Below, in pieces: positions 25,097 to 46,349 of a DNA stretch of 64,000 bases (the stretch's first letter is position 1; every line of letters starts with the position of its first letter). The notes below the pieces were generated by a model, which worked only from the letters and a program-made list of their open reading frames with translations, was not told where the DNA came from and made no database searches. The stretch comes from Escherichia phage phiE142: sequence record NC_055709.1; one strand, 5' to 3'. A program made the position numbers and the translations under genes.

Positions 25097-25843
25097 TTAA
25101 CCTTTAATCAGTTGGAATAATGATGCGCTAAGTGGTAAGCCACGTTTCAATTTTAATTTACCAATGAAACCAATCTTTTCAAAACGTTGCAAACCTTGGA
25201 TAACTTTATCATATGTATCGAAAAGCGATTCAGCGTCAGTTAATTTAGTTTTAGTTTTCCAGTCAGAGCCTTTAAGAAGAACGTTGAGTTTAGTAAGTTC
25301 ATGTCCTTCTGCTTGATGTGAACCATTAATGCGTGCTTTCAAAGCAACAATTCTAAGTTTAGACTCGTTAGATAAAGGTTGATTTTTCATCATGTTCGCC
25401 ATATGCTTAACACGATTTTCACGTTTTGCTCGGATTTTTAAAATAGTACCATAAACCTTTTTGATTTGGGCCCATTTCTTCTCGTCGAGATTAAGTTTCT
25501 CTACTTTACGGGCAGAAGGATTAGCGATACGTCTTGCAATGGCATCACGTTTCTCAATAAGTTCTTCTAATGTTAAATCAGAACGAGCCGTGTTATATTT
25601 TTTCTTAACTGGGATAACATTACCTTTTATGTAGCCGATATCGTTATTAAAACGTTCTAAGGATAATTTCTCACCTTCAACAGAGTTATTGAAAGATTCA
25701 CCTGAGTAAGCGCAGACCTTTTGATCAAGAATGTTTTTAAGATAATTAAAGTCTAAGTTAAAATCCTTAGAGCGTCTCTTCGCAGAAGCTCTGGTGTGGT
25801 CAAGACGACGATTGATTTTGTTAATTTTATTATTTGATAACAT
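25097..25843 (-). CDS. srd: Srd-like protein
   Basis: 248-aa basic protein at the T4 srd position downstream of dda. Confidence 0.55.
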   Translation of the reverse strand: MLSNNKINKINRRLDHTRASAKRRSKDFNLDFNYLKNILDQKVCAYSGESFNNSVEGEKLSLERFNNDIGYIKGNVIPVKKKYNTARSDLTLEELIEKRDAIARRIANPSARKVEKLNLDEKKWAQIKKVYGTILKIRAKRENRVKHMANMMKNQPLSNESKLRIVALKARINGSHQAEGHELTKLNVLLKGSDWKTKTKLTDAESLFDTYDKVIQGLQRFEKIGFIGKLKLKRGLPLSASLFQLIKG

Positions 25844-36947: not shown

Positions 36948-37046
36948 TGTATTTTTCCATAGGCATCATTATATTTTACTCATGTTTAAAAGATAAGATG
37001 ATTATATACTAATGATTATACAGCATTTAAAACTTTAAACAGGCTC

Positions 37047-37595
37047 TTAACGAGCCCATTTGATGATTTCTGTAATCAAATCATTACGTTCGCTTGCATT
37101 AAATCCTATAACTTTGTTAGCACCATCATGATTAAGTAATTGATACGTTTGGATTTTGTTATGAATTGCAAACTCTTCAAAATGTGAAATGACTGTATTA
37201 AAACCGAATGAAGACAAAGTAATAAGGTCGTCTTCAAAACTTTCAGTCATTTCGTTACGTGTTAAAATAATTGTGAACACGTCATGGTTTTGGCAAAGAC
37301 GAACATAATCCTGCTCATAAACATCAAGAACCGAGTCAGCATCTTGTCGAATACGTCCATAAACCCAGTTACTAATATATCCACGGTCTAACAGATAAAT
37401 CTTAGTAGGGTCTAAATAATTCAACATCGTTTCGAAACAGCCAACTTCATTTCGAGACTTAACATCGAAACGTCCATCAACTGTTCGTTTAGGGAAATCA
37501 ATCTTTACATATCTTTCACTAATTTCCATTATGTCATTAATGAAAGTTGTTTTACCAGCATTATCCGGGCCATCTACTAAAATAATTTTAGCCAT
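37047..37595 (-). CDS. P-loop kinase-fold protein (NMP/sugar kinase-like)
   Basis: Walker A ILVDGPDNAGKTT at N-terminus, 182 aa; occupies part of the T4 beta-gt slot. Confidence 0.55.
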   Translation of the reverse strand: MAKIILVDGPDNAGKTTFINDIMEISERYVKIDFPKRTVDGRFDVKSRNEVGCFETMLNYLDPTKIYLLDRGYISNWVYGRIRQDADSVLDVYEQDYVRLCQNHDVFTIILTRNEMTESFEDDLITLSSFGFNTVISHFEEFAIHNKIQTYQLLNHDGANKVIGFNASERNDLITEIIKWAR

Positions 37596-37596
37596 T

Positions 37597-38496
37597 TTAT
37601 TCCTCGATTACGACATCTTCGTATTTAGGTATATTATACGGCGAAGAAATTAAAGCATTAAAGTAGATGAACTCACCAAGACCTGGATGGAATACTTCTT
37701 CAGGATTTTCGAAATATTGAATCTTCGGACGTCCTTTAAGAATTTGGTAGTACTCAGTTTTAGTTGGTTTAAAAATTCTAATCAGCGCTTCTTCAGGATA
37801 CTTATTTCTGTCGAAGCTATTATTTGGATCGGTTATATAAAGCGGTTGACCTAATTGAATTGCACATTCAACCACTTGTTCAAAATGATAACACGGATCA
37901 CTAATTCGAAATGGATGAAAAATACCATCTACATGAATAGGAGCCAAATCACCTACAAGACGCTGCATGATGGAAGGACGTATAACTTTCTGCGTTACGA
38001 TAATCTTATTATCATCTGCGCCAGCGTTAACCAGCACTTCCTTTTGACGTTTATTCAACACAGTTGTTTGGATTGAACGATTAACCGACAACATGTCGGT
38101 TTTTAAGAATTCGTCAATATAAAAACGTGGTTTATTAGGGTCTGCAGTGATATTGAAATTGAATTCTACATCAAAAGCGCCGTCATATCCAGTGATATCT
38201 GTGATTAGAAAATCACAATCATAATAAGCAATTAATGAATCAACCACAAATTCATTTTCAGACCAGAAATATTTACGGGTGTTATACGCGTTATCTTTAT
38301 ACCATAATGGAACAAACTTAAATTCTGGAAAAAGACGTTCGCATTCTTTAATATCAGATGCATTACGTGGATATGTAATCACATCACCCGGATTAGCACG
38401 GTGCAAATGAAGTTGGAAGTTGCCATCCTTAAGGATAGCATACTGTCCAGTTTCATAAGACCGCATACTCAAGATAGGTACGCGGAAAATAGCCAT
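37597..38496 (-). CDS. Hypothetical protein (299 aa) in the beta-gt slot
   Basis: No recognisable motif; translationally coupled to flanking genes. Confidence 0.5.
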   Translation of the reverse strand: MAIFRVPILSMRSYETGQYAILKDGNFQLHLHRANPGDVITYPRNASDIKECERLFPEFKFVPLWYKDNAYNTRKYFWSENEFVVDSLIAYYDCDFLITDITGYDGAFDVEFNFNITADPNKPRFYIDEFLKTDMLSVNRSIQTTVLNKRQKEVLVNAGADDNKIIVTQKVIRPSIMQRLVGDLAPIHVDGIFHPFRISDPCYHFEQVVECAIQLGQPLYITDPNNSFDRNKYPEEALIRIFKPTKTEYYQILKGRPKIQYFENPEEVFHPGLGEFIYFNALISSPYNIPKYEDVVIEE

Positions 38497-39212
38497 TAGT
38501 CAAGGAATCCTTTAACATAATCAAAATCACGTTCAAACACATGGGCACTTACCATGGTATGAGTATAATCACCAACTTCTACACCGCATTCGTTAGCGAT
38601 ATAATGAAGTAATTTTCCTTGGAGATAAAAATCCAACTGCATAACAACAGCACAGTTCTGAGAACGCATATGACAGTGGGTATAAAGCTTACCATCACGA
38701 ATATAATAAGTCACTGAGTCAGTACATGGATATTCAAGCGTTTCATCCGAATCAAGCAAAGCCTGATCAGAACTTTCTAGAATTTGGAACACAACTCTTC
38801 GAGAGTTAGGCTTCTCTTTAAGTTCTTTTAGAAGAGCTGGTAATTGGGCCGCAATGCGAGGACCATAGAAAGTGTTGAAGTTCGCCGGCAAAACATCTGA
38901 TTTTGGTTTAGAAATAAATTTAGCGACATTAGGATATGCCTTAAACGCTTCTTCTGCGTTGGTACCACCAGAAATCATAAACTTCCAGAAGTCTTCGGCA
39001 TATTCATAAGAGATGCGGTTAATACGTGGGTCGGTCATTTTGAATGATGATGGAGTGTCAACAACTACTGTCATAGACCCAATTTCATTACAACGTCCAA
39101 TACGAGAATCAGTTACGAATTCCGGGTTTTCTAAAATTTCACGATTGACTGCTTTAAATGCGGTTTGAAAATCTGCGGCTTTGATATATTTCATTGTGTT
39201 ATGTTTTCCCAT
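38496..39212 (-). CDS. 42: dCMP hydroxymethylase gp42-like (thymidylate synthase fold)
   Basis: PCTDSVTYYIRDGKL...HMRSQN block parallels T4 gp42 CTNTVQYLIRDKK...NMRSND; 238 aa. Confidence 0.65.
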   Translation of the reverse strand: MGKHNTMKYIKAADFQTAFKAVNREILENPEFVTDSRIGRCNEIGSMTVVVDTPSSFKMTDPRINRISYEYAEDFWKFMISGGTNAEEAFKAYPNVAKFISKPKSDVLPANFNTFYGPRIAAQLPALLKELKEKPNSRRVVFQILESSDQALLDSDETLEYPCTDSVTYYIRDGKLYTHCHMRSQNCAVVMQLDFYLQGKLLHYIANECGVEVGDYTHTMVSAHVFERDFDYVKGFLD

Positions 39213-39254
39213 GTTTACCTCAATACAATTTATTATATACTCAATTCGTAAAGC

Positions 39255-39494
39255 TTATTTGAATTTCTTGACAATGTTGATATAACGTAAAGCTTCAGCA
39301 TCGATACTTCCAAGAACACTATGAAGAAATGCATCAGCGTAGTATTCCAATTGAACAGGTTCTTTAATCACTTTAGCCGCTTTAGTTTCAAAAAGGCCCA
39401 TCAGGGCCTTTTTAAGAATTTGTTCATTAGTGTTCAGTTTCATAGTCAAAATCTCTTCATTAAGTTGGTGGTTAAAAGTTTTTCTAGAAATCAT
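39255..39494 (-). CDS. Hypothetical protein (79 aa)
   Basis: ORF only. Confidence 0.45.
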   Translation of the reverse strand: MISRKTFNHQLNEEILTMKLNTNEQILKKALMGLFETKAAKVIKEPVQLEYYADAFLHSVLGSIDAEALRYINIVKKFK

Positions 39495-40666
39495 TCCGGG
39501 TATCTCAAAGCGTCATCAGAGTTAGTTATATCAATAATAGATATAGAGTTTTCTGCTAACCCGTTTTTAGATAATTGACGTTTATAATATCTTTCACAAT
39601 ATGTACACGTCGTCCCGCAGATTTCATTAGCACAATCGAAATCTGGATGTCTGAACCACCTTTTTTCTAAAAAGCCATCTAACAAAGAGGTTTCAATATT
39701 TACTGTATGTGAAAACTCAGTCTCATTTTCAAGAGTGAAAATAGTCTCTAAAGGCTTCCACAGTTCTAACAAATTACCTTCAAACTTTTCAGAAGCGTAT
39801 GCTTCAAGAACTTTCAAAATGTAGTCTGTGCTACCTGTACGTCCTGAAACTTTGAATTGAGTGATACCAATATCATTATAAAGTTTCAAATCTTGAGGAC
39901 GAACAAAACGAGTTCTCAACCAGTTAAATGGGTCTGTATCACGAGCTTTAATACAGTGCTGCATAGGATATCCGTTTAAGGATTTAGCATCATCAGCGGT
40001 AACATCAGTACTATGGAAAATATAGCAAGAGTCACGATAGCTACAATGTGTTGTATACCCTTTACCAGCATTAGAACAGAACTCATTTACAAGAACTTCA
40101 AATATTATATTGTTCTTATTGCAAAACTCTGCTGCACGCTTCAGGAAAGAAACTGAACGGTTCTTATGAATTCCACAGCAGACCTTTTTGATATTATACT
40201 GGTCATGCAAGTATTTGATTTGAGTTACAGCATCGACATGTAGAATTGTTGAAACTTCAATCTCAATGTCTTTATTGACTTCACGAACAATTTCCATAAC
40301 AACAGGGTTAGCGATAGTAATACGCCATACGCCTATTGACCAAAGATACTGAACATAATCCTGAATAGCTTTCTTCTTCCACTCAACTAGTTCTCTTTTT
40401 GAACCAGGATTTATCGTGTTGAGTGTATAGTTAAAGCAAATACCTAATTCGTTACAACGTTTAACGTAATCTTCTAACATCTTTTTGTCAACGTCAGGAA
40501 GCCTAAAATCAGGTCTGGCTGCTACAAAAGCCATTTCTCTTGTAGAGCCATATACTTCGTTTATCAAGCTATTAGGATAAGTTTTATTGAGCTCTACGAT
40601 TTTATCGAGAAGAGCTAAATCAAAATTCGTTCCGATTTTAAAAGTATTCATTTTTTTGCATCTCAC
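39491..40666 (-). CDS. Cys-cluster protein (391 aa), possible Fe-S/metal enzyme
   Basis: C-terminal CANEICGTTCTYC (Cx4Cx3Cx2C) plus further Cys; no confident family assignment. Confidence 0.5.
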   Translation of the reverse strand: MRCKKMNTFKIGTNFDLALLDKIVELNKTYPNSLINEVYGSTREMAFVAARPDFRLPDVDKKMLEDYVKRCNELGICFNYTLNTINPGSKRELVEWKKKAIQDYVQYLWSIGVWRITIANPVVMEIVREVNKDIEIEVSTILHVDAVTQIKYLHDQYNIKKVCCGIHKNRSVSFLKRAAEFCNKNNIIFEVLVNEFCSNAGKGYTTHCSYRDSCYIFHSTDVTADDAKSLNGYPMQHCIKARDTDPFNWLRTRFVRPQDLKLYNDIGITQFKVSGRTGSTDYILKVLEAYASEKFEGNLLELWKPLETIFTLENETEFSHTVNIETSLLDGFLEKRWFRHPDFDCANEICGTTCTYCERYYKRQLSKNGLAENSISIIDITNSDDALRYPE

Positions 40667-40708
40667 GTTAATTGATGCGATGGTTTTTTGCAGGTCTTAC
40701 TTAAATTA

Positions 40709-41110
40709 TTATAGATTCGGTTTATATGATTTAAATGTTTCGAATTCGCCTTTATTCATAAGAGCTTTGAATTCGTCAGGACGCATAGCTTTGTCGTCGA
40801 TAATCCAATCATATACTGGTTTATGTGTTAGCAAATTATGGTACTTCAAGCCAATGTTTGCCAAGTTCTGAATCAGACTTGGGAGAATGTCAATTGCTAT
40901 ACGACCAGGACCTACTGACTTCATACCGCGAGCAGTGTAAAGCGTTATGGTATGCCCTGCATCATACAGGGCATTAATGGCAGTCACCATTTCGACGTCC
41001 GGTTTGAAGTTCACGTAATCACGATTGTTATTCCACTCTGTTATACAATCATCGACGTCAAAACAAAGATTAAGCATGTTTTCTACACGGTGCATTAGAT
41101 TCGTTCCCAT
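40709..41110 (-). CDS. HAD-like phosphatase
   Basis: 133 aa; N-terminal FDVDDCIT (DxD-type motif I, non-canonical), TARG motif II-like, WIIDDKA motif IV-like. Confidence 0.5.
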   Translation of the reverse strand: MGTNLMHRVENMLNLCFDVDDCITEWNNNRDYVNFKPDVEMVTAINALYDAGHTITLYTARGMKSVGPGRIAIDILPSLIQNLANIGLKYHNLLTHKPVYDWIIDDKAMRPDEFKALMNKGEFETFKSYKPNL

Positions 41111-42780
41111 TGATGAGTGATATCGCCACCGATTGGACGATAGGAAACACCAGTTTCTTTATCAGTTAGTACCCATTTACCAGGATTTTTTGTAATCAGA
41201 GTAGCCGTTACAGGTTCTGCTACGTCATAACTAATAGAGCCATCTTGAAGTACACGGCCCATGTTACGTAATTGCTTAGTCAGAAGTTCCATACCTTTAT
41301 AATATGCGGCCACCGCTTTAAGTGGATTATTCTTGAAATAACCACCTAATGCAATCCAGATAATTGCCACTGCCAAATGATGATACTCGTTAAACGAACT
41401 CATCTTTCCATATTTGTAAACTAATGGATTGATGTTAATAGTCACATTACAAGTTGTTTCATCAATAGTAAACTGGCCCCAGGTCGGATTAGCGTTGAAT
41501 TCATCATAACCTGAAACAGCATAAAGCACTTTAGCTTCATCATACAATTTTGGCCCGTAAATCTTGGTTTCGCCAAAATATCCACGAGGGTCGATAAACT
41601 TGACTTCGCCGTTATCAGTAATCATAGTATTACTGAAGTTCGGGTCACCGTGAATAACAGAGTACTGTCCCTGAGAACGGTTATGATAACGAATAAGATG
41701 TTCTAAAGCTTGTTTCAACATTGGCTTCAGACGTCCAATCTTAGTGTAGTTCACGTGTGTGATTTTACCAAATGAATCAATCAATGGCTGAATGCTTTCA
41801 CAACGATCAATAACTTTCGTATAGAACTCTTTAGTGAAATCACGACGAACAGTTTCAGGACTTACAAAATAAGTGTCTGTGCTGAATTTCAGTGCATCTA
41901 AAATTGCATCAACAATTTGTGGACGAGCAAGACTTGATTTGGATTTAATATATTCAAATGCCGGCTTACCTTTAATACGTTCCATTTCAAAATTATTTTC
42001 ATTTACCGAAACTAACTGAGGAACCGAATCTGATTTCACTTTCAAATACCATGAAATCTCATCTTTTTGAAGAGCTCGACCTTGTTCGGTTAACGCGAAT
42101 TTAGTTACAGTTTCTTCGCCAATTTCAACTGCATTAAAACTACGATTAAGTTCACGAACTTCATGAGCTTTTTCAAGTTTAGGCATATCACCTAAATCAA
42201 TTAGATTCATAAGCTCTGATTTATTGAATGCGCTGCTGTAAAGGAATTCTACGAAATCACGTCCTTTGCAGTATTCATGAATTTCCTCATCAGTAGAACC
42301 CATATAGAATTCCCAGTCTTTGAACTGATAAATTCCTACAACATTACCGCCTGTTGCACCTACATTAGTGATATTTTCACCGTCGAAATTATATCGACAT
42401 TCGTCACCCTTAACATAGATTGCGTTAACATTCCAAGACCATGAACCAAAATCAGGAATAATATCGCACCAGTTAACAACTACGTTATGCCTGTCTAAAT
42501 CTTTGTGTAATTTAGCAAGAGCATAAGCAGAACCATACGCTTCATCAACTGTACGAATAGTCACATTGAACCCTTCTTGCTCACAATAAGCTCGAACGGT
42601 TTCAGCAAATTTTGAATGAACTACTACAATAATTTCATCTGCGCCAAGGTCAGAATAAATTGTATACAAATTGCTCAGAATAGTGTCTTGTTTATAGTTA
42701 ACAAGCACCTTAGGAATATGATGCGTTATTGGATACAAACGAGTTGCCAGTCCAGCACCAAGAATAACAGCTTTTTTCAT
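41095..42780 (-). CDS. Bifunctional sugar-1-phosphate nucleotidyltransferase / APH-type kinase
   Basis: N-terminus KAVILGAGLATRLYPIT (RmlA/GlmU-type); C-terminus VIHGDPNFSNTMI...FIDPRG (aminoglycoside/choline kinase catalytic loop). Confidence 0.7.
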   Translation of the reverse strand: MKKAVILGAGLATRLYPITHHIPKVLVNYKQDTILSNLYTIYSDLGADEIIVVVHSKFAETVRAYCEQEGFNVTIRTVDEAYGSAYALAKLHKDLDRHNVVVNWCDIIPDFGSWSWNVNAIYVKGDECRYNFDGENITNVGATGGNVVGIYQFKDWEFYMGSTDEEIHEYCKGRDFVEFLYSSAFNKSELMNLIDLGDMPKLEKAHEVRELNRSFNAVEIGEETVTKFALTEQGRALQKDEISWYLKVKSDSVPQLVSVNENNFEMERIKGKPAFEYIKSKSSLARPQIVDAILDALKFSTDTYFVSPETVRRDFTKEFYTKVIDRCESIQPLIDSFGKITHVNYTKIGRLKPMLKQALEHLIRYHNRSQGQYSVIHGDPNFSNTMITDNGEVKFIDPRGYFGETKIYGPKLYDEAKVLYAVSGYDEFNANPTWGQFTIDETTCNVTININPLVYKYGKMSSFNEYHHLAVAIIWIALGGYFKNNPLKAVAAYYKGMELLTKQLRNMGRVLQDGSISYDVAEPVTATLITKNPGKWVLTDKETGVSYRPIGGDITHQWERI

Positions 42781-42961
42781 GTTGTGGTCCTCATTGGTAA
42801 GTAGGAGTATTGTACACTATTCTAGTTAAAGCATTCATACTTTGCTTGTAGTCCAATCATAATCCATCCAATTACAAGTGTTGGAATCATTACCGGAGCC
42901 GTTAAGCTCCAGTAGATAGTCATGACAAGCATCAATAGTAAAAGTCCTATTGTTATTGCTT

Positions 42962-43597
42962 TCATTGTTCGCCTCGTAACATGGCACCTAGTGCACCGCC
43001 TGGATGGAACTTAAGGAAATCATTAGAGGTAAATCCACGTTCAGACGAAAGGTTGATAGCAAACGTATCGATAAGCGCTAACAACAATGTAGTGGACATT
43101 GTCGGAGCTAAAGAGTTCTCGTCAACTTCTACCGCGATACCAGTACAGAACGTATAATCAAAAAGAGCTTCGTATTCTTGTGGAATGTCAGGGTTACAAT
43201 GTAACAGAATCTGTTTAACCTGAGGACGAATCATACGAAGATGTTTAGCAACACCTATCATTTCTTCAGTCTTACCAGAACGACTAATATGAATCAACAC
43301 ATCATTAGGCGCAATGAATCCTGCATCACCGTGAGAATAATGCCCAGTGTTCAAGTACATACTCGGGATACCGAGTGAAGCAAATGTCTCAGAAGCTTTA
43401 GTTGCGATATTAGCGTTCTTACCAACACCTGTAATAATTACACGACTTTCATAATTACTCAGTCCTGGGCGTCGAAGAGTTTCTAGAATAGCATTATAAC
43501 GAGCAGGGTTTTGACTAATTACTTTGGCCATAGCGGCCAAAGAAGAAGCTTGTTTTATGATTGCGTCAATAGCGATAGTAATAGGAGTAGTTTTCAT
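42962..43597 (-). CDS. SIS-domain sugar-phosphate isomerase (KdsD/GutQ-like arabinose-5-phosphate isomerase)
   Basis: ITGVGKNANIATKASETFASLGIPS...HGD...LIHISRSGKTEE SIS motifs; 211 aa, no CBS domains. Confidence 0.7.
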   Translation of the reverse strand: MKTTPITIAIDAIIKQASSLAAMAKVISQNPARYNAILETLRRPGLSNYESRVIITGVGKNANIATKASETFASLGIPSMYLNTGHYSHGDAGFIAPNDVLIHISRSGKTEEMIGVAKHLRMIRPQVKQILLHCNPDIPQEYEALFDYTFCTGIAVEVDENSLAPTMSTTLLLALIDTFAINLSSERGFTSNDFLKFHPGGALGAMLRGEQ

Positions 43598-43637
43598 ATT
43601 TCTCTCATTTAATTAGTTTACCGTCCATGGCATTATA

Positions 43638-46349
43638 TCAAAAATCGAACATATCGAATAGAGATGCTTTCTTCTCGTAATCGAGTTTCGCTGCTGATGT
43701 GAATCCTTCAAGTGGTTTAATAAATGTCTTCTCAAGGAGAACAGTGTAGTCCATCCAATGAAGTACGTCGTCTTTAATTAAATCTGTGATTTCAGTACCA
43801 GAAGGCCATGCGATACATTTATCACCGAATGGGTTTCCTTCACGTAAAGGCAGAACATATACTTTTTCACCTTCTACAACTTGTGGAGCATCAATATTAC
43901 CTTTGATAGCCCGGTTATACGTCAGAATTCCACGAATATGGAACGGACATTTGGGACCAGGGAATCCACCTACATCATATTTAGCAATGTTATTCGCAGA
44001 AGATACCGACGCGATGCTAATATAATTCAATTGACGGAATTCTTTTTCAAACTCTTTAAAATATTCTTGTAATGATTCTTCACCTTCTTGAAGCATACGA
44101 CGAATACATTCTTTAAGAGCTTTCTGTACCGCTTTAGGAGTTGAAGATTTCTGTGTTTCGAGACCCATGATTTTGAGTTTAGGCTCAGCGTAACGAGTAC
44201 CTTCCATATCCCACACGTTTAATGCATAACGTTTCTTACCAGTCCAGAATCCGCCAATACCTTTAGAACCAAGCGGAGGACCAGCGATAGCTTCTCGGTC
44301 CATGAACATTAAGTGTTGTTTATTGTTCATGTATTCACACATTTCACGGAAACCTTTATCAATAGCTGGTTCCATACGTTCACGTGCGAACTTATCTAAG
44401 AAGTCTACCCAATGGTTGGTATCACGGAATTTAGATTCACCAACCTTATCGATAATTTTATCAGCAGATACGTAAATAGAGTCTGTATCACCATAAAGAA
44501 CGAAAGCTTCACCTTCTGTACCACAAACTTCATTCAGATATTCATTAACTTTACGTTCAATCCACTGTAAAGCCATTTGCCCGAATGTTGTGATTGCAGT
44601 AGCATTACGCAAATCGTAATAACGGAACCATACGTTACCAAGTGCACCATAAAGCGAGTTGATAAGCAATTTACGGTTAATTTGTGCAGTCATACCTGCA
44701 ACTTCAGTACGTTGAGCTCTAAACAACATTTCATTAAGAGATTTAGCAGACAACTTTTTAATCTTTTCTTTAATCTCATCGCTGAAGTCGAAACGATAAT
44801 CAACATCTAATGGTTCGTCAACAGAAAGATTAGGATTATGCAATGCCTCTTTAATTATTTCACCATTACGTTGAGCTGCAAGCATGTAACCTTTATGTTC
44901 TTTACGCTGATTAAAGACCTTAGTGATTTCAGTTGGAACTACACCGTCACGGTCTTTATAATACATCATGCCGTTAGGAGAGCAACTGTACACATCTGAA
45001 GGACGTTCAGCGATTGCGTTAATATAATCATGCAGTGGAGCTACTTTAAACGTTCCTGCTATTGTTTCCGGGCTAATATTCACTTGGCGAATAATACTTG
45101 GATACAGAGACGTAAGGTCGAAACTCATTACATATTTGTATCGATTTGGAATAGGTTCCTTAACAAAAGCGCCAGGATAAGGTTGAACCGGGTGAGAACG
45201 ACCTTGTGGAATCACCTTGTTTTGTTCTTTAAGGCTATTAAAAATAATAGCATCCCAAGTTTTAATTGGACTGAACACAGATTGAATCTGAATTTTAGCA
45301 TAATAACCCATGTCCAAGCTCAAGTTGATGAACTGACGCTTAGAATCAATTTGCAATACACGATACACGTCGATAATGTTATAAGAAATATATCGTTGGT
45401 GATTGCTTTCACGAAGCTTAGAAATAGGGCCGTCATATTTCAGTTTACCAATGTTCAATTCAAATTCTGAAATGTAATCCAGAGAATACGACGGTTGATT
45501 GGTAAAAGAGAATTTTTTGTAAAGGTCAATGTAATCAAGAACAGAGATACCGAACAATGTAATGATTTCACGAGAACCATACATGTTTTCGATAACTTTA
45601 ACACGAGTTTTACGATGTGGTGATAAACGTTTCGCAGTAGATTCGCCAAAAATATTCTTGATTCGGTTATACACATATGGAATATCAAATGACTCAACGT
45701 TCCATCCAGTCAAAATGACAGGAGTTTTCTGTTGCCAGAAGTTGAGATATTCCATCAACAATTCTTTTTCGTTATCGAACGGCATATAAATGATTTTATC
45801 GATAATTTCGGACGGAACTTCATCACCACCTTGTTCTTGAAGCTTAGCAGCGATTTCAATAGACCATTCTTCCACATTACCATATGGAGAATTCAATAGA
45901 TCAAATACGTAGAACCTGTCGTCAATTGAGTCATAATGGGTGATAGCATCAATCGGATGTTTTGCTTGTGACGGCTCAGGGAATCCATCCGGAGATGTTA
46001 CTTCGATGTCGAAGTTAGCCACACGAATTTTTGTATGGTCGTATTTGATTTCATAGTTATAAGTGTCAGACAAATACGCCAATTTGAAATCGTCCATGCC
46101 AAGTGCTTCAAGACCGATATCTTCCATGCGTTTAATCCATTGAGACGCATCACGCATATTAGCGAACAACTTACGAGTACACGGCTTACCGTAGATATCG
46201 AAATATTTCGTAGCCTGACTTTCTGGACAATGAGCAAACAGTGATGGTTTATATTCTACTTCACGAGTACGTTCACGGCCATTAGAATCGATGTAACGTT
46301 CAAAAATTGAATCACCAATCTGTTCAACCGTTAAGTAAAATTCTTTCAT
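43638..46349 (-). CDS. 43: DNA polymerase gp43 (family B), RB69-type
   Basis: 903 aa; sequence matches RB69 gp43 as I recall it from structural literature, including exo motifs FDIEV and YNIIDV and YGDTDS. Confidence 0.95.
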   Translation of the reverse strand: MKEFYLTVEQIGDSIFERYIDSNGRERTREVEYKPSLFAHCPESQATKYFDIYGKPCTRKLFANMRDASQWIKRMEDIGLEALGMDDFKLAYLSDTYNYEIKYDHTKIRVANFDIEVTSPDGFPEPSQAKHPIDAITHYDSIDDRFYVFDLLNSPYGNVEEWSIEIAAKLQEQGGDEVPSEIIDKIIYMPFDNEKELLMEYLNFWQQKTPVILTGWNVESFDIPYVYNRIKNIFGESTAKRLSPHRKTRVKVIENMYGSREIITLFGISVLDYIDLYKKFSFTNQPSYSLDYISEFELNIGKLKYDGPISKLRESNHQRYISYNIIDVYRVLQIDSKRQFINLSLDMGYYAKIQIQSVFSPIKTWDAIIFNSLKEQNKVIPQGRSHPVQPYPGAFVKEPIPNRYKYVMSFDLTSLYPSIIRQVNISPETIAGTFKVAPLHDYINAIAERPSDVYSCSPNGMMYYKDRDGVVPTEITKVFNQRKEHKGYMLAAQRNGEIIKEALHNPNLSVDEPLDVDYRFDFSDEIKEKIKKLSAKSLNEMLFRAQRTEVAGMTAQINRKLLINSLYGALGNVWFRYYDLRNATAITTFGQMALQWIERKVNEYLNEVCGTEGEAFVLYGDTDSIYVSADKIIDKVGESKFRDTNHWVDFLDKFARERMEPAIDKGFREMCEYMNNKQHLMFMDREAIAGPPLGSKGIGGFWTGKKRYALNVWDMEGTRYAEPKLKIMGLETQKSSTPKAVQKALKECIRRMLQEGEESLQEYFKEFEKEFRQLNYISIASVSSANNIAKYDVGGFPGPKCPFHIRGILTYNRAIKGNIDAPQVVEGEKVYVLPLREGNPFGDKCIAWPSGTEITDLIKDDVLHWMDYTVLLEKTFIKPLEGFTSAAKLDYEKKASLFDMFDF

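Follow-up and report, generated by a model that had tools for sequence, protein, structure and literature searches.

Escherichia phage phiE142 is a T4-like Mosigvirus, and a stretch of 64,000 nucleotides from its record NC_055709.1 (the window) contains a region flanked by UvsX and an RB69-type DNA polymerase, with phage phiC120 being 98.8% identical across 37000-43700. The gene of interest in this region is the counterpart of RB69 ORF050c (product gp50), to whose protein the window version is 99.5% identical. A sequence-only reading of the window had described it as an open reading frame (ORF) of 391 amino acids (aa) with a cysteine-rich C-terminal CANEICGTTCTYC. Both are present, with the 391 codons running on the minus strand from a GTG at 40666 to a stop at 39491. 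The likely start, judged from alignments, is instead the ATG at 40651 (MNTFKIG..., 386 aa), because PHROG 5757 aligns from residue 5, tblastn matches begin at that Met, and phage HY126 annotates a coding sequence of 386 aa. Cysteine numbers are those of the 391-aa form throughout. The gene had been placed between the HAD phosphatase and "gene 42", which holds on the HAD side; on the "gene 42" side, the 79-aa ORF049c intervenes, and the "gene 42" reading frame itself is about 280 bp away. A promoter and terminator scan of the region gave promoter-like sites not above the shuffled expectation, one of them being a sigma-70-like match (TTTAAA-16-TATAAT, 10/12) at 40708-40735 (-), just upstream of the start of the gene and at the end of the HAD gene.

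The sequence-only reading could not place this protein in a family, saw only a weak resemblance to TIM-barrel Fe-S enzymes, and named remote homology search and structure prediction as the checks to make. Those checks assign it to U32. Pfam Peptidase_U32 (PF01136) matches residues 99-291 at 42.2 bits versus a gathering score of 22.4, and PF01136 is precomputed on nearly all homologues. Searches of PDB sequences, by single sequence and by family profile, gave nothing relevant; the protein was placed only through profile-profile and fold comparison. A family profile of 36 sequences aligns by hhalign to Escherichia coli UbiU, UbiV, RlhA, and TrhP with 96.3% probability (E = 2 × 10−9), and the AlphaFold model is confident (pLDDT 89.7, pTM 0.89) and has the U32 TIM-barrel fold. 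By sequence and by model, then, the phage protein is a divergent member of Peptidase_U32, and the TIM-barrel resemblance is borne out. Assignment to one E. coli paralogue was tried and dropped, as the family hidden Markov model (HMM) scores TrhP at 13.1, RlhA at 8.7, UbiU at 3.7, and UbiV at −0.8 bits, with no clear winner; the phage family is therefore considered a separate subfamily. The UbiU equivalog NCBIfam NF047963 gives 18.4 bits versus a cutoff of 440, and the matches to RlhA and TrhP are partial stretches only (386 aa vs 653 and 453 aa), which is not the pattern of orthologues. Mk0906 (PDB ID: 5D88) is the only solved U32 structure that was matched, over a 247-aa core at 14% identity and without the phage C-terminal Cys extension; we found no functional assignment for it. 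The family has 1,185 representatives at E up to 10−3 (clusters at 50% identity), mostly on phage-like contigs in the neighborhoods sampled.

The cysteines give the family its character. There are 14 in the 391-aa protein, and in 121 homologues at 46-87% identity 10 of them are invariant or nearly so (C163, C182, C197, C208, C214, C238, C345, C350, C354, and C357). Among 122 more distant representatives (27-50% identity), C197, C208, and C238 are conserved at 99-100%, position 214 is Cys in 62% and His in 37%, and the 4 C-terminal cysteines at 345, 350, 354, and 357, those of CANEICGTTCTYC, are conserved at 93-94%. Conservation of this pattern is far beyond chance, so the C-terminal cluster and the further cysteines remarked on in the sequence-only reading are real. 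In the hhalign alignment C208, C214, and C238 fall on UbiU C169, C176, and C232, which are proven 4Fe-4S ligands, and E190 falls on E161. Two of the core positions thus match the CX6C pair of the U32 motif and one matches UbiU C232. The region of UbiU C193 is deleted in the phage protein, and we infer that C197 stands in for it as the fourth core ligand. By analogy, the C-terminal set is most likely a second metal site holding an electron-relay Fe-S cluster, and it looks comparable to the C-terminal cysteines of RlhA and to the second cluster contributed by UbiV in the heterodimer. Its CX3CX2C spacing, in a protein containing a TIM barrel, is reminiscent of radical-SAM enzymes. That identification was rejected, as the invariant C345 precedes the motif and the site lies in a C-terminal extension outside the barrel; with 4 cysteines it looks fully ligated, unlike a radical-SAM site, and Pfam Radical_SAM (PF04055) has no match at E up to 1. 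The positions of these sets and of the genes around them are given in Table 1.

Table 1. Genes and cysteine sets of the modification region, in window positions
Feature	Position	Strand	Remarks
U32-family Fe-S protein gene (RB69 gp50 orthologue), predicted	39491..40651	(-)	386 aa from ATG; maximal ORF from GTG 40666
Core Cys set C197-X10-C208-X5-C214-X23-C238	39953..40078	(-)	predicted ligands of U32-type [4Fe-4S] cluster
C-terminal Cys set C345-X4-C350-X3-C354-X2-C357 (CANEICGTTCTYC)	39596..39634	(-)	predicted second metal site
79-aa ORF (RB69 ORF049c, PHROG 8601)	39255..39494	(-)	start overlaps U32 stop (ATGA)
Thymidylate-synthase homologue ("gene 42"), flavin/O2-dependent 5-hydroxy-dCMP synthase	38496..39212	(-)	D169N + N177D signature; RB69 orthologue gp48
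DNA arabinosyltransferase 1 (RB69 gp46:47 orthologue)	37597..38496	(-)	homologues abut U32 genes in diverse uncultured phages
Thymidylate-kinase-like nucleotide kinase (RB69 gp45 orthologue)	37047..37595	(-)	
HAD phosphatase (AfhF-like), UDP-arabinose pathway	40709..41110	(-)	
Bifunctional arabinose-5-P kinase / UDP-arabinose pyrophosphorylase (AfhE-like)	41095..42780	(-)	
Arabinose-5-phosphate isomerase (SIS domain)	42962..43597	(-)	

What the U32 protein has for company is a pathway that has recently been worked out in RB69, whose DNA carries arabinose ether-linked to 5-hydroxycytosine (5hoC), not to hydroxymethylcytosine (Lee et al., NAR 2026, PMC13326640). RB69 gp48 is a flavin-binding 5-hydroxy-dCMP (5hodCMP) synthase that takes its oxygen from O2, as found by 18O2 labelling; it binds FMN loosely, needs reduced flavin, and functions in E. 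coli without gp50 (PMC13326640). Three enzymes (isomerase, bifunctional kinase/uridylyltransferase, and HAD phosphatase) suffice to explain how UDP-arabinose is made, and gp50 is found only in Table 1 of Lee et al., as a "sugar or heterocycle reductase", from fold matches to 5D88 (PMC13326640). The window version of "gene 42" carries the diagnostic D169N and N177D, and by that signature it is a 5hodCMP synthase rather than a dCMP hydroxymethylase, so that the base to which the sugar module adds arabinose is 5hoC and not hydroxymethylcytosine. He et al. reportedly treat the HY126 homologue of this synthase. The sequence-only reading had offered the U32 gene a role in sugar or base modification, as an epimerase, dehydratase, or redox step. 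The redox step in base modification is very probably correct, while the epimerase or dehydratase role has no support, the UDP-arabinose route being explained without gp50 according to Lee et al. It had also expected the gene to add a step that the simple pathway does not explain, and here it more probably duplicates a known one, the C5 hydroxylation of cytosine, in an O2-independent manner. Between the arabinose-5-P isomerase and AfhE-like genes there is a strongly hydrophobic 47-aa ORF (MKAITIGLLLLMLVMTIYW...) at 42822-42965 (-), which from its composition looks like a small membrane protein; HY126 has an ORF of the same size annotated at that place.

The characterized U32 enzymes are O2-independent hydroxylases. 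RlhA (YdcP) is required for 5-hydroxycytidine at 23S rRNA C2501, and it needs prephenate, Fe-S biogenesis, C169 and C176 of the U32 motif, and its C-terminal cysteines. TrhP (YegQ) carries out a prephenate-dependent, O2-independent formation of ho5U34 in tRNA, in parallel to the O2-dependent TrhO. UbiU and UbiV each bind a [4Fe-4S] cluster, with C169, C176, C193, and C232 as the UbiU ligands, and together they hydroxylate ubiquinone precursors without O2, the oxygen donor being prephenate. The phage protein has a share of each of these. With RlhA it has in common the U32 domain, a C5 hydroxyl on cytosine as the proposed product, C208 and C214 aligned to RlhA C169 and C176, and a separate C-terminal Cys cluster, essential in RlhA; RlhA differs in its 653 aa with large C-terminal domains, in its C-terminal Cys spacing, and in a substrate that is one rRNA position, whereas for the phage protein we propose a DNA precursor or DNA, required in stoichiometric amounts. 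TrhP, of 453 aa, acts on tRNA uridine and is not an orthologue (13 bits), but with TrhO it provides the case of a U32 O2-independent route and an unrelated O2-dependent route to one 5-hydroxypyrimidine, as we propose for gp50 and the flavin synthase. With UbiU-UbiV the phage protein shares the fold, 3 aligned [4Fe-4S] ligands, and, by prediction, the prephenate donor and 2 clusters per functional unit, although these are placed on one polypeptide instead of one on each subunit of a heterodimer; the UbiU-UbiV substrate is an aromatic lipid, and the UbiU C193 region is absent from the phage protein. The flavin-dependent 5hodCMP synthase (RB69 gp48, DLP3 gp80) would share product and pathway with the U32 protein and is unrelated to it in sequence and mechanism, having a thymidylate-synthase fold, FMN, and oxygen from O2.

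We think it probable, with doubt still substantial, that the U32 protein is an anaerobic, prephenate-dependent cytosine C5-hydroxylase, giving an O2-independent route to 5hoC for arabinosyl-5hoC DNA. Family membership, fold, Cys conservation, and genomic linkages are observed, and from here on metal content, prephenate use, substrate, and anaerobic role are what we infer. The substrate would be dCMP, or possibly cytosine already in DNA, oxidized by 2 electrons. Prephenate would give the hydroxyl oxygen and aromatize to phenylpyruvate with release of CO2, as in the scheme put forward for UbiUV, and the electrons would leave via the core [4Fe-4S] cluster (C197/C208/C214/C238) and the C-terminal cluster (C345/C350/C354/C357), both on a single phage polypeptide as against one per subunit in UbiU-UbiV. 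The enzyme would back up the neighboring flavin/O2-dependent synthase under anoxia, in the way that TrhP may be set beside TrhO for tRNA ho5U and UbiU/V beside UbiI/H/F for ubiquinone. T4 likewise pairs the aerobic NrdAB with the anaerobic NrdDG reductases. A substrate at the nucleotide level is the most economical choice, because RB69 encodes a dCTP pyrophosphatase (Lee et al., Table 1, PMC13326640), which by analogy with T4 would be expected to deplete dCTP, making replication depend on the modified nucleotide. At 37% G+C, a 167.6-kb genome demands about 62,000 hydroxylations, or millions per burst. With a stoichiometric demand of that kind, a phage-encoded, feedback-insensitive chorismate mutase and DAHP synthase would therefore be useful.

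Such genes are found in relatives. Enterobacter phage Entb_45 has, overlapping the stop of its U32 gene, a gene for a genuine type II chorismate mutase, scoring 40.9 bits to CM_2 versus a gathering score of 27 and matching many NCBIfam chorismate mutase models. By tblastn, chorismate mutases of this type are in 51 phage records, always beside the synthase gene and next to U32, from phages of Klebsiella, Serratia, Yersinia, Enterobacter, Edwardsiella, Erwinia, Pectobacterium, Kosakonia, Providencia, Morganella, E. coli (phage EcS1), and Shewanella; the arrangement beside U32 and synthase was confirmed in Yersinia phage TG1 and Serratia phage 92A1. The phage chorismate mutases keep what we take to be the AroQ catalytic pattern. 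The Mosigviruses have none by tblastn, and the unrelated 79-aa ORF049c is there instead. Elsewhere in the window, a single 15-bit match was dismissed as spurious; it falls in a basic, helical 248-aa ORF at 25097-25843 (-), which looks like a mobile gene of the homing-endonuclease type. ORF049c as a cryptic chorismate mutase was also rejected (hhalign probability 0.1% against the phage chorismate mutases, no CM_2 match), and TG1 and 92A1 carry ORF049c, U32, and chorismate mutase together. ORF049c conserves N8, H9, L11, N12, and E13 and a YY-DAF-HS motif, with 3 helices predicted, and it is split or truncated in several Mosigviruses, HY126 included. It is translationally coupled to the U32 gene and may serve the U32 enzyme as an accessory factor.

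The other supply gene appears outside the T4-like phages. A U32 of about 49% identity is encoded on four diverse non-T4 viral contigs, each with a DAHP synthase-chorismate mutase fusion (DAHP_synth_1 + CM_2; L044:8411-9433, L046:9-971, L047:7302-8357, L048:8332-9387) one gene upstream of it, the order being arabinose-5-phosphate (A5P)-isomerase-like, AfhE-like, Tmk-like, fusion, HAD, U32. The fusions look like auxiliary metabolic genes that would serve to supply prephenate. A full shikimate pathway upstream of them was considered and rejected, the genes there being AfhE-like, Tmk-like, and HAD. A Pfam census of 148 neighbors at 23 de-duplicated diverse loci has DAHP_synth_1 in 5, CM_2 in 4, Thymidylate_kin in 7, PolIII-alpha in 5, SIS in 5, and NTP_transferase in 4, along with dUTPases. 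Homologues at 50-58% identity are in huge phage-like contigs where the gene order is thymidylate kinase, UDG, PolIII-alpha, dCMP deaminase, U32, and others adjoin NT5C, dNK, and nucleoside deoxyribosyltransferase. Over 10-kb flanks at 32 non-T4 viral loci, a homologue of the window arabinosyltransferase abuts U32 in 6, AfhE-like genes are present in 10 (9 of which also have an A5P-isomerase homologue), and a thymidylate-synthase homologue is within 10 kb in only 1 (L035). Because a DNA glycosyltransferase of the arabinosyltransferase type needs a hydroxyl on the base, U32 is the obvious candidate to provide it in these glycosylation clusters.

Further from the window protein, a 30%-identical U32 member on a phage-like contig (L018:6622-10111) lies in the order TSCPD, U32, a 173-aa gene, a thymidylate-synthase homologue, UDG, PolA. 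This synthase homologue was rejected as a 5hoC synthase, as it keeps D169 and N177 and so is of the dUMP type; the position of L143 aligns with an acidic residue, suggesting a hydroxymethylase. Some U32 family members may thus act in uracil or thymine hypermodification pathways. A conserved cassette of GP88 (PF17338), a methyltransferase/kinase-like protein of about 410 aa, a protein of about 266 aa, and U32 occurs at L002:5135-9098 and L016:4251-8056. The L002 contig, which has a GH43 gene with a dockerin, appears bacterial. After its cassette come genes for NT5C, an NMN transporter, dNK, a radical SAM/SPASM protein, another U32-like paralogue, and nucleoside deoxyribosyltransferase; the cassette region is possibly a deoxynucleoside-modification or salvage island.

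In cultured phages, the synthase is more widely held than U32. It is in 372 records, 57 of them from Acinetobacter phages and 20 from Rhizobium phages, versus 220 for U32, all at 80% identity or more, whose hosts among the matches listed are only Enterobacterales or Shewanella, with no Acinetobacter or Rhizobium phage. Acinetobacter phage AM101 (L011) has the HAD gene followed directly by the synthase gene, and Escherichia phage MX01, a Dhakavirus (L012), has a rearranged order in which the kinase gene is between HAD and synthase, with no arabinose-5-P isomerase annotated. The 5hoC synthase, AfhE-like, and HAD genes are present in these two phages, and U32, chorismate mutase, and ORF049c are absent from both. 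Acinetobacter and Rhizobium hosts are aerobes, so the host pattern of U32 fits an anaerobic function.

The readings that compete with the hydroxylase can be weighed against this distribution. An enzyme of the sugar pathway acting on the arabinose donor, be it the reductase of the label given by Lee et al. (a "heterocycle" reductase being the other half of it) or the epimerase or dehydratase of the sequence-only reading, would suit a gene lying between sugar-activation and base-modification genes, with sugar-nucleotide genes near U32 in diverse loci too. It is nonetheless unlikely in our judgement. The label of RB69p050 comes from fold matches alone, RB69 DNA carries plain arabinose with the UDP-arabinose made without gp50, and arabinosylated 5hoC is made by Acinetobacter phages, which lack U32 (PMC13326640). 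The sugar role also leaves unexplained the linked chorismate mutase and DAHP synthase, as well as the loci at which the neighbors of U32 are all nucleotide and replication genes. We know of no U32 member that acts on sugars. A little less likely again is an RNA hydroxylase such as TrhP or RlhA, making ho5U34 or ho5C in host or phage tRNA or rRNA and tuning translation during infection. The proven pyrimidine substrates of U32 enzymes are RNAs only, and the family HMM does score TrhP and RlhA slightly above UbiU and UbiV. The host, however, already has TrhP, TrhO, and RlhA, and the phage protein is without the C-terminal domains that RlhA and TrhP have. Among cultured phages, the gene seems to be confined to those with the 5hoC synthase, it lies inside the DNA-modification cluster, and its neighbors elsewhere are deoxynucleotide and DNA-replication genes rather than RNA-modification genes; catalytic modification of RNA would give no obvious need for a phage DAHP synthase and chorismate mutase.

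Adjacency to a synthase that binds FMN loosely and needs reduced flavin raises the idea of a redox partner, an Fe-S flavin reductase or electron shuttle in place of a hydroxylase, and 2 predicted Fe-S sites would suit electron transfer. We hold this to be quite improbable, in that the synthase functions in E. coli without gp50 (PMC13326640), is used without U32 in Acinetobacter, Rhizobium, and Dhakavirus phages, and has no homologue nearby in most of the diverse U32 loci; the linkage to chorismate mutase and DAHP synthase again has no explanation. That the protein is a true peptidase or collagenase, as the family name and automatic annotations would have it (GenBank records often label the gene "peptidase" or "collagenase-like protease"), is scarcely credible, as the characterized U32 members take part in hydroxylation and peptidase activity is not established for them, conservation falls on Cys/His metal ligands and on basic residues, and the gene context has no proteolysis in it. 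Each of these four readings falls short on the linkage to chorismate mutase and DAHP synthase, on the synthase-free glycosylation clusters, or on both.

The prephenate-dependent hydroxylase itself has several points to answer. The proposal is drawn from sequence, model, and analogy, and for every U32 member in vitro hydroxylation was unshown as of a 2024 PNAS paper. The canonical motif CX6CX15CX3/4C is not kept, the phage version being CX10CX5CX23C with a fourth ligand that is a guess; the canonical form is in 8 of 10 U32 subfamilies, common though not universal. There is no chorismate mutase in the window, so the prephenate link depends on relatives. Thymidylate-synthase homologues could lie beyond the 10-kb flanks of the uncultured loci, and the L018 pairing of U32 with a dUMP-type homologue indicates that the substrate may vary, both in base (C or U) and in form (nucleotide or polymer). 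Because the Dhakaviruses of E. coli possess the synthase and lack U32, U32 is dispensable in at least some enteric hosts, and the correlation with host physiology covers few independent lineages.

That U32 enzymes are prephenate-dependent hydroxylases is already known; what would be new is a distinct subfamily with an altered core Cys motif and a second Cys cluster, and the proposed role in DNA hypermodification. In the literature searched, we found nothing on a phage U32 protein with chorismate mutase, prephenate, or hydroxycytosine, and prior publication is possible. As a wider and more tentative proposal, for which our confidence stops somewhat short of even, there may be a large, mostly viral U32 subfamily of self-contained, 2-cluster, prephenate-dependent pyrimidine C5-hydroxylases acting on DNA precursors, of which the phage protein would be the founding cultured member, and which would be the sole hydroxylase in many uncultured phages of anoxic habitats. 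If U32 is the only hydroxylase there, glycosylated 5-hydroxypyrimidine DNA would have an origin independent of thymidylate synthase.

To our knowledge, the only known route to 5hoC in RB69-type phages uses O2, and their hosts are enteric bacteria, whose life is largely anoxic. A prephenate-dependent phage hydroxylase, if that is what the U32 protein is, would resolve how modified DNA forms in the anoxic gut, and would account for the puzzling phage chorismate mutase and DAHP synthase genes as suppliers of a stoichiometric organic oxygen donor. It would offer an experimentally tractable U32 enzyme that is soluble, consists of one polypeptide, and takes a small molecule as substrate, a welcome addition as no U32 hydroxylase had been reconstituted in vitro by 2024, and it would predict which therapeutic phages retain their anti-restriction DNA modification in the anoxic gut. 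For the family, the U32 chemistry of the organic oxygen donor would extend from RNA and quinones to DNA precursors.

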